A stretch of 56,338 nucleotides of DNA from Patescibacteria group bacterium (GTDB taxonomy: Bacteria > Patescibacteriota > Minisyncoccia > Phycocordibacterales > UBA9973): contig JAZJXT010000001.1 of NCBI GenBank assembly GCA_040390725.1, positions 218,586 through 274,923 of the forward strand, written 5' to 3'. Under the pieces are notes generated by a model that did not search any database, had not been told where the DNA came from, and worked only from the letters and a program-made list of their open reading frames with translations. Of the stretch, positions 6,284 through 33,111 are shown one piece after another; position 1 is the first letter of the stretch, and the number at the start of each line of letters is the position of its first letter. The translations under genes and the position numbers were made by a program.

Positions 6284-7465
6284 TTAGCACAGGCGCATTT
6301 TACCATTGGCTTTTATTTTTTTTGGGTCAATGGTTTTTTTATTGTTTTTTATGTATTGCAAATAGCCAGCGATGCCTATCATCAAAGCATTATCGGTGGA
6401 TATTTTTTTCTCAGGGAAGAGGACTTGCTTTTCTTTTTTAAAAAACTTTCTCATCATTTTTCTCAAGTGTTTGTTTGCCGATACTCCGCCGGCGACGATG
6501 AGGGTAGATGCTCCGTATTTTTCCATAGCTTTATTTGTTTTGTAAATTAAAGTTTCCACCACTGCATTTTCGAATTCCATGGCTATTTGAATCTTTTTTT
6601 CTTCGTCGAGCGGGCCTATTTTTTTAATTAAATATAATACGGCGGTTTTTAATCCGGAAAAAGAAAAATCTAAATTTTTACTGTACAACATCGGCCTTGG
6701 TAGGGTTATTTCGGCCGTAAGCTTTTGAAAACCGCGCATATCCGCCTGCTGGCGGATTGCTATGCTCGGCTCGCCAGCCTGCGCAATGCTTTTCAAAAGC
6801 TTGCGGCCTTCATTAGCTCTGCCTTTTTCTGCATACCTTGAAACCCAAGGCCCGCCAGGGTAAGGCAGTCCCATCATCCGCGCTACTTTGTCATATGCTT
6901 CTCCGGCTGCGTCATCCAAAGTCTCGCCGACGATTTCATATTTACCCCAATCTTTTATGAGCACGAGCTGAGTATTTCCGCCGGAAGCTAAAAGGGAAAT
7001 CATCGGGAAGCTTGCCCGTCCTTTGGCGGGTTTAATTGGAACTATAAAACCCCCTTTGCTTTTTCCAAAAACAGAAAGTATGTGTCCTTCCATATGGTTC
7101 ACCGGCACCACCGGCACATTCCATTTTTTTGAAAGTTCTTGCGCAAAAACAATTCCTGTCCAAAGGCACGGCTCGAGCCCGGGCCCTGAAGTGACGGCTA
7201 TTAGGTCTATGCTTTTTTGTGTGAGGTCTTGCCTCACACCAAGCTTTGCCTTTTTCAGCATCTTGTCTAAAAGTATAGGCAAGTTTTTTATATGGTCGCG
7301 TTTTGCCAAAGCAGGGAATACGCCTCCGTGCGGAGCGTGAGTTTTATTTTGCGAAATAATGCCATTTGCCAAAACTTTAAAGCTTGCGTTTTTAGCGCCT
7401 CCCTTAACTTCCATTATTGTTATGCCAGTGTCATCACAACTTGTCTCAATGCTTAAAATTTTCAT
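6284..7465 (-). CDS. tsaD: tRNA N6-adenosine threonylcarbamoyltransferase TsaD (Kae1/Gcp family) with an internal insertion
   Basis: 393 aa. Contains MKILSIETSCDDTG, NHMEGH, SGPGLEPCL, LPRPM...DFSFSGLKT and VAGGVSAN. Confidence 0.9.
   Translation of the reverse strand: MKILSIETSCDDTGITIMEVKGGAKNASFKVLANGIISQNKTHAPHGGVFPALAKRDHIKNLPILLDKMLKKAKLGVRQDLTQKSIDLIAVTSGPGLEPCLWTGIVFAQELSKKWNVPVVPVNHMEGHILSVFGKSKGGFIVPIKPAKGRASFPMISLLASGGNTQLVLIKDWGKYEIVGETLDDAAGEAYDKVARMMGLPYPGGPWVSRYAEKGRANEGRKLLKSIAQAGEPSIAIRQQADMRGFQKLTAEITLPRPMLYSKNLDFSFSGLKTAVLYLIKKIGPLDEEKKIQIAMEFENAVVETLIYKTNKAMEKYGASTLIVAGGVSANKHLRKMMRKFFKKEKQVLFPEKKISTDNALMIGIAGYLQYIKNNKKTIDPKKIKANGKMRLC
6713..6808. repeat. 96-nt GC-rich compound palindrome inserted in frame (32 codons) in tsaD
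   Basis: Outer arms are GGCCGTAAGCTTTTGAAAA (6713-6731) and TTTTCAAAAGCTTGCGGCC (6790-6808), 18 of 19 complementary. An inner hairpin is ATCCGCC-TGCT-GGCGGAT, and GCGCA pairs with TGCGC. The element coincides with extra residues before the conserved LPRPM motif. Confidence 0.8.
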
Positions 7466-9711: not shown

Positions 9712-10470
9712 TTATATACTAAAACCTTCCAAGATTTCAAGTTCTTCTTTTGAATTGGCGCCGAGGGCTTCACGTGGGTTTATTTCCACTGTTTCTATTT
9801 TTTCATTATTTTTTGCAGCTATATGAAATAGGTCTGTGATGTAATATTCTTTTTGCGAGTTTTCATTTTTTATTTCTTCCAAATTTTTCCAGAGCCACTG
9901 TGCATCGAAAACATAACAGCCTGCATTTACTTCTTTTATATTTTTTTCTTCGTCATTCGCATCTCGATATTCTTTGATTCCTGCTACTTTACCGTCTTTG
10001 CGCAAAATTCTGCCGAAAGATAAAAAAGATTTTTTCCAATCTTCAAAGTCGGGGAGTGTCGTCGTCGCAAAAGTTATTTTTGCATTTTCTTTCAAATGTT
10101 TGTCCACCAGATTTTTCACAGTATTTTCGGATATCAAAGGCATGTCGCCCTGAAGCACTAAAATATGATCCGCATTTTTACAACTTTCATTCGCGCACAT
10201 TACCGCATGCCCCGTGCCGAGCTGTTCATTTTGCACTATGTATTCGTATTTATCACCGAGTTCTTCTATGACCAATTCTTTTTTGTGGCCTACAATGATG
10301 CCTGTATTATTATCTATGTCATTAATATTTGCTTTTTCGATTGATTCCAACAAATGTTTTATCATCGGTTTGCCTTTCAAGGGCGCTAAAACTTTCGGCA
10401 AATCACTCTGCATCCTTTTGCCTTTCCCTCCGGCTAGTATTAAAATCTTTACCTTATTTATTTTACTCAT
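9712..10470 (-). CDS. Sugar-1-phosphate nucleotidyltransferase, GlmU N-terminal-domain-like (no left-handed beta-helix acetyltransferase domain)
   Basis: 252 aa. LAGGKGKRMQSDLPKVL..LKGKPM, EQLGTGHAV, LQGDMPLI and EYYITD match the GlmU pyrophosphorylase domain. Confidence 0.75.
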   Translation of the reverse strand: MSKINKVKILILAGGKGKRMQSDLPKVLAPLKGKPMIKHLLESIEKANINDIDNNTGIIVGHKKELVIEELGDKYEYIVQNEQLGTGHAVMCANESCKNADHILVLQGDMPLISENTVKNLVDKHLKENAKITFATTTLPDFEDWKKSFLSFGRILRKDGKVAGIKEYRDANDEEKNIKEVNAGCYVFDAQWLWKNLEEIKNENSQKEYYITDLFHIAAKNNEKIETVEINPREALGANSKEELEILEGFSI

Positions 10471-32891: not shown

Positions 32892-33111
32892 AGGTATATT
32901 CTACCAATATTTAAAACAATAAAATAGAGCTTGACTTTTATCACTATTCATGATAAGCTTTTTAGTGAAAAAAGATCCTTGAAAAATATCGATTTTCCTT
33001 TGTTATTTACCAAGTTCGTTACGGCTTAAGCCTTAATTATTTTGGTTAATAACAATAGGAGTATCCCCGAAAATCCTTTAAAGAGTAGGGGTAATCAATA
33101 ATAGATAAACA

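Follow-up and report, generated by a model that had tools for sequence, protein, structure and literature searches.

In a stretch of 56,338 nucleotides from a Patescibacteria group bacterium (GenBank assembly GCA_040390725.1, contig JAZJXT010000001.1; hereafter the window), the gene tsaD contains a 96-nt palindromic block which is probably one copy of a multi-copy, non-autonomous, hairpin-forming family of repeated DNA in Parcubacteria-type bacteria of the candidate phyla radiation (CPR). The block is an insertion relative to other TsaDs, and its relatives occur many times in coding and intergenic DNA. At the orthologous tsaD site the element is present in some genomes and absent from others, and it is found there in both orientations and in more than one reading frame. 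Its stems covary across the family, and its core is conserved well beyond what the divergence of the host gene allows.

The host gene is a full-length, intact open reading frame (ORF), which matches Pfam PF00814 with E = 1e-76 over profile positions 1-263 of 264 and the TsaD proteins in PDB with E values of about 1e-72, and the gene order tsaD-valS-PrsW-HSP20 is identical in the orthologous loci that were fetched. Counted from the start codon at 7465, the element makes up exactly codons 220-251 of this minus-strand gene (peptide GRKLLKSIAQAGEPSIAIRQQADMRGFQKLTA). A preliminary description, made from the letters of the window, had proposed an in-frame insertion of 32 whole codons just before the motif LPRPM...DFSFSGLK, and this placement is correct: against the E. 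coli and Salmonella TsaD structures the alignment splits into two blocks and leaves query residues 219-251 unaligned; on the chain the break falls between residues 193 and 194/195, and the motif follows immediately. Since this gap relative to the solved TsaDs coincides with the palindrome, the block is an insertion relative to other TsaDs. An AlphaFold2 model of the window TsaD (47-sequence alignment) reaches a mean predicted local distance difference test score (pLDDT) of 85.6 and a predicted template modelling score of 0.85. Its sole segment with pLDDT below 50 comprises residues 224-250, and in the region of the insert it places helices at 204-227 and 235-248, with a short unstructured link between the two. 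The confident fold around the insert agrees with the earlier proposal of a tolerated surface loop, and the model fits a poorly ordered 32-residue stretch which leaves the TsaD fold undisturbed. Elsewhere in the same protein there is another insertion that E. coli TsaD does not have, smaller and lineage-specific, at residues ~134-154 (about 7003-7065; GKSKGGFIVPIKPAKGRASFP). It exceeds the length seen in most close homologues, has a pLDDT of 67 for residues 141-150 and is encoded by non-palindromic DNA.

On the plus strand, positions 6713-6808 read GGCCGTAAGCTTTTGAAAA CCGCGCAT ATCCGCC TGCT GGCGGAT TGCTATGCTCGGCTCGCCAGCCTGCGCAATGC TTTTCAAAAGCTTGCGGCC. An inverted repeat finder returned the two 19-nt arms as 18/19 (95%) complementary and 58 nt apart. 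Folded as RNA the 96-mer reaches -51.8 kcal/mol (z = -6.1), folded as DNA -34.2 kcal/mol (z = -6.7), and none of 200 shuffled versions folded equally well. The compound palindrome with one difference between its arms, as first described, is therefore confirmed by both the repeat finder and the shuffled folds, and the inner hairpin ATCCGCC-TGCT-GGCGGAT was located at 6740-6757 (hairpin B). The pairing of GCGCA with TGCGC that had been proposed beside it gives way to another hairpin at 6763-6785 (hairpin A), which is backed by covariation across the family. The coordinates of these parts are compiled in the table. For hairpin A, a hammerhead and a kink-turn were considered and rejected by eye, as CUGANGA is missing and the bulge is followed by GG instead of GA. 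The description of the block as GC-rich holds against the averages of the gene (43%) and of the window (36%), the element itself having about 55% GC. It does not hold on the side of the adjoining conserved tsaD stretch at 6800-6950, which is equally GC-rich (0.52-0.55), and the contrast is sharp only toward the 3′ part of the gene. No further arm match with up to three mismatches was found elsewhere in the window (0.08 expected by chance), and no flanking direct repeat was seen at the tsaD copy.

Table. Host gene and parts of the palindromic element in the window. The sense strand of the element is the tsaD coding strand.
Feature	Position	Strand	Evidence or remark
tsaD (tRNA t6A37 threonylcarbamoyltransferase), host gene of the element	6284..7465	-	ORF list, 393 aa; Pfam and PDB matches
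Whole element, 96 nt	6713..6808	-	Limits set by the outer inverted repeat
Outer stem, 5′ arm in element sense, GGCCGCAAGCUUUUGAAAA	6790..6808	-	Inverted repeat; outer-stem columns covary across 111 copies
Outer stem, 3′ arm in element sense, UUUUCAAAAGCUUACGGCC	6713..6731	-	Inverted repeat; one C·A mismatch with 5′ arm
Hairpin A, UGC-GCA-GGCU-GGCG-AGCC-GA-GCA	6763..6785	-	RNAalifold consensus and pair counts
Parts of hairpin A: 3-bp stem, internal loop GCA/GA, 4-bp stem GGCU/AGCC, tetraloop GGCG (most copies GACG)			
Hairpin B, 7-bp stem AUCCGCC/GGCGGAU, loop AGCA	6740..6757	-	Columns 61-67 with 72-78
Peptide within the tsaD insert, SIAQAGEPSIAIR			Expected if translated

Comparison of orthologous tsaD genes reveals how this site varies. 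The closest TsaD homologues (57-67% identity; Parcubacteria-group metagenome-assembled genomes where named) lack the segment in some cases and carry several mutually unrelated peptides in the rest. Among the best 120 homologues, the interval from PGGP to LPRP is short (19-29 aa) in 13 and long (42-87 aa) in about 106, and about 88% of close homologues have the site filled. In the DNA, locus L081 carries the element in the same reading frame as the window, L085 and L086 carry variants of the same palindromic element, L087 has DNA nearly that of L086 in a different frame, which yields ..LRRATARGRSEFF.. where L086 has ..PQGDGPRTEQIF.., in L088 the site holds the reverse complement of the element, and L084 lacks it. 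A homologous loop encoded by non-palindromic DNA, which would have spoken for an ancestral feature of the lineage, was not encountered in these orthologues. Since the same DNA is read in other frames and occurs reverse-complemented at one site, the tsaD segment is, judged from these sequences, a nucleotide-level element and not a protein loop. The filled protein of L081 (P0003) and the empty protein of L084 (P0113) are about 91% identical outside gaps and differ by a block of 31 codons (93 nt), and the window TsaD, merely 67% identical to P0003, bears the same element subtype. P0123, which shares a 90% cluster with P0069, was considered as a strain-level empty allele and dismissed, as it proved to be an N-terminally truncated gene call with the insert still present.

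The cores of the window and L081 copies are 91% identical over 65 nt, compared with 44% at tsaD third codon positions, and those of L086 and L087 are 89% identical despite their different frames, compared with 41% at third positions. Neutral DNA would be unrecognisable at such divergence, and the cores are therefore either constrained at the nucleotide level or renewed by re-insertion or conversion. The outer arms of orthologous tsaD copies change by paired substitutions, for example AGCCG/CGGCU in L081 and GGGCA/UGCCC in L098, which fits either correction templated by the hairpin or selection for pairing. In L084 the empty site is a quasi-palindrome itself (AGAGAGAAAAA ... ATTTTTCTCT), which could be a footprint or could arise because the codons for E-R-K and F-S-L are naturally complementary.

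Copies of the element are not confined to tsaD. A pattern common to the tsaD copies (CGCAGG-NN-GRCG-NN-CCGAG, then ..AGC.., then a second hairpin with loop AGCA) matched exactly in at least 120 stretches of a metagenome collection, several of them with two matches, and about nine GC-rich matches were set aside as apparent chance matches. From 111 distinct aligned copies (MAFFT alignment A2) we built a covariance model, R1, which in the window matches only the tsaD element (6702-6813 on the minus strand, 86.5 bits, E = 1e-26; next best 13.7 bits). Across the fetched loci, R1 identifies at least 123 non-redundant copies, up to three per contig. It recovers every tsaD copy fetched by protein similarity except the decayed one in L089 and adds fifteen matches at spots missed by the exact pattern, among them three copies on L202, two arranged head to head on L171 and a further one on the tsaD contig L085. 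Thus, the further coding and intergenic copies that the preliminary description had asked after exist in large numbers. Roughly 120 kb of tsaD flanks held one extra copy. R1 found none in the tsaD loci of more distant CPR lineages (labelled Saccharibacteria, Nomura-, Wildermuth-, Falkow-, Specht-, Moranii-, Magasanikbacteria and similar), and a contig profile search with the TsaD alignment gave, among the matches listed, no locus with the element and for the most part remote relatives, with identities of 46% or less. A search of viral contigs returned one chance match of 10 bits, and blastn returned no match in 72,556 plasmids, a collection which may include Rickettsia plasmids. An assembly artefact is very unlikely, as the element is present in many independent assemblies. 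As to the arrangement of copies, the two members of the L171 pair (9804-9918, minus strand, and 9935-10048, plus strand) are 17 nt apart and lie 3′ of a UvrD-like gene, and the three copies of L202 fall within 13.6 kb, a high local density.

The host DNA ranges from 31 to 60% GC (median 41%), and the element core is on average 15.5 points richer. Of 123 copies, 45 lie inside ORFs which are open for at least 60 codons on each side (six of these ORFs, in GC-rich DNA, are doubtful), 17 are ambiguous and 61 have no spanning ORF. The host ORFs cluster into about 20 groups, and Pfam confirms at least 12 families: TsaD, UvrD/PcrA, TGT (Tgt), RecG, KsgA/RsmA (RrnaAD), Fmt (Formyl_trans_N), IleRS, class-V aminotransferases of the IscS/NifS type (Aminotran_5), MiaA (IPPT), UvrB, Pep_deformylase (Def), RluA-type PseudoU_synth_2 and a SAM methyltransferase. 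Two copies reside in one gene in the UvrD of L188 and the Tgt of L152. The UvrD genes have two separate sites which are filled or empty depending on the contig, and one of these holds the element in sense in three contigs and in antisense in two, so that the behaviour seen at tsaD is general. Intergenic copies occupy nearly the entire spacer directly after or between ordinary genes. The genes between paired copies were inspected for a composite transposon, which was rejected because all of them are ordinary.

Relative to the host ORF, 34 of the coding copies are in sense and 11 in antisense. One frame predominates in either orientation, with 26 of 28 sense copies read as ..SQADEPRG.. and 9 of 10 antisense copies as ..GALPLGPSACETP.., and about half of all copies have the other frames open. 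Such a strong frame preference argues that the insert is translated and that some of the resulting peptides are better tolerated than others.

Some host proteins show additional inserted segments. The UvrD ORFs of L188 and L209, the KsgA of L124 and the TsaD protein P0079 contain recurrent peptides (..FSQVLG..P(Q/G)TIRKS.. and ..GPRFSGSL(P/S)QPDH..) at different insertion points, a hint at further in-frame element families, or strongly diverged variants, in the same organisms. Besides the element, the UvrD host ORF of L124 (1056 aa) seems to hold a block resembling an intein, which follows the DExx region (..CLVKGTKIKMANNT..).

In every copy, two covarying hairpins form a Y-shaped core, and a long outer stem closes it. 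Across the family, the internal loop of hairpin A is of the G·A type and its tetraloop reads GRCG; the loop of hairpin B is AGCA. RNAalifold predicts 24 pairs from the MAFFT alignment, 21 of them with compensatory changes, and divides the outer stem into two segments. In hairpin A, columns 29-31/49-51 and 35-38/43-46 are 98.5-99.8% paired with compensatory changes at 4 of 7 pairs. Hairpin B is 98.3% paired, all 7 of its pairs have changed on both sides, and all four Watson-Crick types occur at most positions. By pair counting, 90.8% of cells are paired compared with 59.8% in shuffles, and the covariation score of 0.787 (0.218 in shuffles) is reached by none of 500 shuffles, with controls using slid partners at 0.24 or below. 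As the search pattern fixed CGCAGG, G.CG, CCGAG, AGC and AGCA, the invariance of these motifs in A2 is by construction. The regions free of the pattern (the inner pairs of hairpin A together with 29:51 and 30:50, all of hairpin B, and the outer stems) all covary, and in the matches found by the model only, the GACG loop and the G·A motif beside it are retained and loop B is variable. In two copies (L129:7484-7596 and L197:10571-10683), a second small palindrome, CCTGCCTGC-GGT/CGG-GCAGGCAGG, is nested just 5′ of hairpin A, which suggests that another mini-palindrome family inserts into these elements.

The outer stem is nearly perfectly paired within each copy, its sequence is particular to that copy, and the median span of the palindrome across the family is ~100 nt. 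We took the outer-stem pairs from an ungapped palindrome scan that weights both transition-type mismatches alike, as RNAfold over ±70 nt overshoots the boundaries. Read in element sense, the stem positions are Watson-Crick paired in 2126 cases, G·T in 83 and A·C in 24, with 63 other combinations, and G·T exceeds A·C in sense-coding (20:9), antisense-coding (10:2) and non-coding copies (50:12). Since the excess is seen in every context, the asymmetry tracks the element and not host transcription, as expected if folding is required of one DNA strand in particular or of the transcript of the element itself. In hairpins A and B, G·U pairs amount to less than 1% though all four Watson-Crick pairs are present. 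The near absence of G·U together with the strand-asymmetric mismatches speaks for pairing as DNA instead of RNA and suggests a single-stranded DNA (ssDNA) hairpin stage. Moreover, a GCGAG-type direct motif, locked in orientation to the element, flanks part of the copies (n = 122; left 30, right 22, both 16; reverse-complement controls 3 and 2). It is found on both sides in, for example, L137, L141, L186 and L204, and may be a target motif, a duplication or an element end.

The main rival to a mobile repeat is a functional RNA or DNA module, in particular a structured RNA which acts in the transcript through protein binding, processing or a terminator-like role and which has been recruited at many places including the tsaD mRNA. 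We regard it as unlikely, although the persistence of the element at its site (the ~88% of filled tsaD genes) and its conservation favour it: every helix covaries strongly, unpaired nucleotides are conserved, and the core has changed far less than the silent sites of the host gene. The position of intergenic copies in spacers directly after genes, where terminators lie, and the excess of G·T over A·C mismatches on one strand point the same way. However, 11 of the 45 coding copies are antisense to the host mRNA, both orientations occur at the same tsaD and UvrD sites, and the strand asymmetry follows the element even in antisense copies (10:2). G·U is nearly missing from both covarying hairpins, which is unusual for RNA helices, and the host genes are many and unrelated. 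Nor does the element match any family of Rfam 15 above the gathering scores; with E values up to 10 admitted, the best over 6650-6870 were 1.9-4.7 with 8-17 bits, far under gathering scores of 67-115 bits, and this search covers self-cleaving ribozymes and group II intron domains.

Removal of the block from the mRNA in the manner of an intron, or its skipping by the ribosome, would keep it out of TsaD altogether. GC-rich palindromic insertions that are bypassed in translation are known in Magnusiomyces mitochondria (yeast mitochondrial byp elements), and the compact, very stable hairpin of the window copy would suit such a role. This is nevertheless very improbable here, as all 45 intragenic copies counted keep an open frame, the frame preference in both orientations implies selection on a translated product, the inserted lengths are divisible by three (96 nt in the window, 93 nt between L081 and L084), and no ribozyme or intron family matches. 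That the segment is an ancestral loop of Parcubacteria TsaD, selected as protein and palindromic in its DNA by accident, is barely credible. Most close homologues do have an extra segment of similar length at the same position (42-59 aa between PGGP and LPRP), yet its peptide is not conserved and follows at least four readings by frame and orientation (..SQADEPRG.., ..RRATARG.., ..GALPLGPSACETP.., ..SSGRRPAESPQ..). Furthermore, the same element recurs in intergenic DNA and in genes of over 10 other protein families, and the low pLDDT of the segment also speaks against a selected loop.

Several points weigh against the mobile repeat family that we favour. The search pattern that supplied most copies fixes 22 positions, so that the invariance there is partly by construction, and the 56-kb window holds a single copy. 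The outer arms differ between copies, unlike classical terminal inverted repeats, and there is no consistent target-site duplication, with direct GCGAG flanks at only about 20% of copies. Among the ORFs of the 111 element-bearing loci, clustered and with representatives judged by eye, no transposase, reverse transcriptase or other mobilising gene recurs; the recurring clusters resemble housekeeping hosts and the genes beside them. An insertion event at the level of strains was not found, the closest filled and empty pair being 91% identical in protein, and translation of the insert is something that we infer from reading frames. Finally, the high occupancy of the tsaD site together with the strong nucleotide conservation could mean that the element has a function there instead.

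On the reading as a mobile repeat, the family would colonise tolerated positions such as protein loops and intergenic spacers. The element would have entered tsaD in an ancestor of the clade, at the loop between 'LAE..RK' and 'LPRPM', and some lineages would since have retained it while others inverted it, shifted its frame or lost it precisely. Where open and in frame, it would be translated into the poorly ordered stretch of the TsaD model. We further infer that spread or homogenisation may proceed through the sense strand as an ssDNA hairpin, whose conserved tip a trans-acting enzyme might recognise in the manner of REP/RAYT or IS200/IS605, that hairpin-templated correction or selection for folding might keep the arms complementary, and that the inverted arms might allow inversion in place. 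It is possible, if on balance doubtful, that the family represents a mechanistically new prokaryotic mobile or functional module: a strand-specific, Y-tipped hairpin without conserved termini, regular target duplication or linked transposase, ancient at orthologous sites in essential genes under nucleotide constraint, flipping in place, and maintained by an unrecognised ssDNA machinery or by a cellular function of its tip.

The closest parallel is provided by the Rickettsia palindromic elements RPE-1 to RPE-10 (RPEs; Ogata et al. 2000, 2002, as summarised in PMC10969869), which according to the same summary prefer one reading frame (PMC10969869). Both families are palindromic repeats of ~100-150 bp which form a long stable hairpin (96 nt in the window copy, z = -6.1), are inserted in frame in many unrelated housekeeping genes and also in non-coding DNA, and use one preferred frame that encodes a conserved peptide. 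Both are compatible with the protein fold, often occupy sites common to related species, and occur in bacteria with reduced genomes, with no mobilising gene known for either. In contrast to RPEs, the present hosts are CPR/Parcubacteria-type bacteria, only the Y-shaped tip is conserved and the outer arms are particular to each copy, the element is met in either orientation and in several frames at a single orthologous site, and the mismatches are strand-asymmetric. A relationship in sequence is not expected. By analogy, the CPR family is thus functionally like RPEs and by taxon not a member of them, being likened by description and set apart by host. The suggestion, made before any comparison, of an RPE-like selfish element tolerated as a surface loop gains support from the orthologues, the many copies, the frame preference and the AlphaFold model.

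REP/REPIN elements, which are mobilised by RAYT (TnpA-REP), and IS200/IS605-type elements are recognised as folded ssDNA and move by 'peel and paste'. Like the CPR family they are short, strand-specific, imperfect palindromes, non-autonomous, multi-copy and often located beside terminators, and REPINs also form long hairpins of about 100 nt. However, REPs are extragenic, whereas 45 of the 123 CPR-family copies lie inside long ORFs, and REP sequence is conserved along the entire palindrome. No recurring RAYT or Y1 transposase was seen by eye in the loci examined. Fungal mitochondria contain GC clusters and double-hairpin elements, some of which are bypassed in translation. These too are GC-rich palindromic mini-elements of AT-rich genomes with in-frame insertion into protein-coding genes, but they are organellar, eukaryotic and unrelated in sequence, and the CPR family shows no sign of bypass. 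Bacterial MITEs (transposable elements of the miniature inverted-repeat type) such as Correia/CREE, ERIC, BOX, RUP, SPRITE and QMITE (PMC10969869) are likewise small, non-autonomous and hairpin-forming, and are intergenic or at times intragenic with in-frame fusions; some, such as SPRITE, are terminator-like. MITEs differ in having conserved terminal inverted repeats which match a parent insertion sequence (IS) and target-site duplications, whereas the termini of the CPR family vary, no parent IS was seen, and some copies have the partial GCGAG flank.

Nothing equivalent is described in the literature that we found on palindromic elements, MITEs or RPEs in CPR, Patescibacteria or Parcubacteria. 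At the level of titles and abstracts, matches for 'palindromic' appeared to concern CRISPR or unrelated topics. A 2024 review of prokaryotic MITEs makes no mention of CPR, Patescibacteria or Parcubacteria, and it speculates only that other prokaryotes might have in-frame coding palindromes (PMC10969869). Apparently, the family has not been described before. In-frame 'protein-coding palindromes', so far treated as a peculiarity of Rickettsia, would thereby extend to phylogenetically remote bacteria with reduced genomes and affect essential genes for TsaD, Tgt, MiaA, KsgA, Fmt, Def, IleRS, UvrB/D and RecG. CPR protein inserts of this kind are no protein features and can mislead alignments, phylogenies and structure prediction. 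At the same time, the family offers dozens of natural experiments on how protein loops tolerate arbitrary peptides, and its conserved tip, strand asymmetry and in-place inversion provide handles on how RPE-like elements might be mobilised. The model R1 can directly be used to annotate these elements in CPR genomes.

The preliminary description had counted a palindrome in gpmI as a second event of the same kind within 7 kb, which did not stand up. This near-perfect hairpin (GGGAGCCGAGCTCCC-TCTT-GGGAGCTCGGCTCCC, 2083-2136 on the plus strand within the ORF 1369-2898) lies between T6 and A5, and its in-frame translation reads ..FWEPSSLLGARLPK... As a second member of the family it was rejected, since it is not matched by R1, has no copy in 209 loci and adds only about 6 residues at that loop relative to the solved G. 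stearothermophilus iPGM. It may be a different mini-palindrome or an arms-only remnant. A further palindrome of the window, at 33000-33055 with overlapping arms of 33 nt, is directly followed by a match to the Rfam DUF805b RNA motif (33056-33091, plus strand), which at 36 bits lies just over the gathering score of 35.6.

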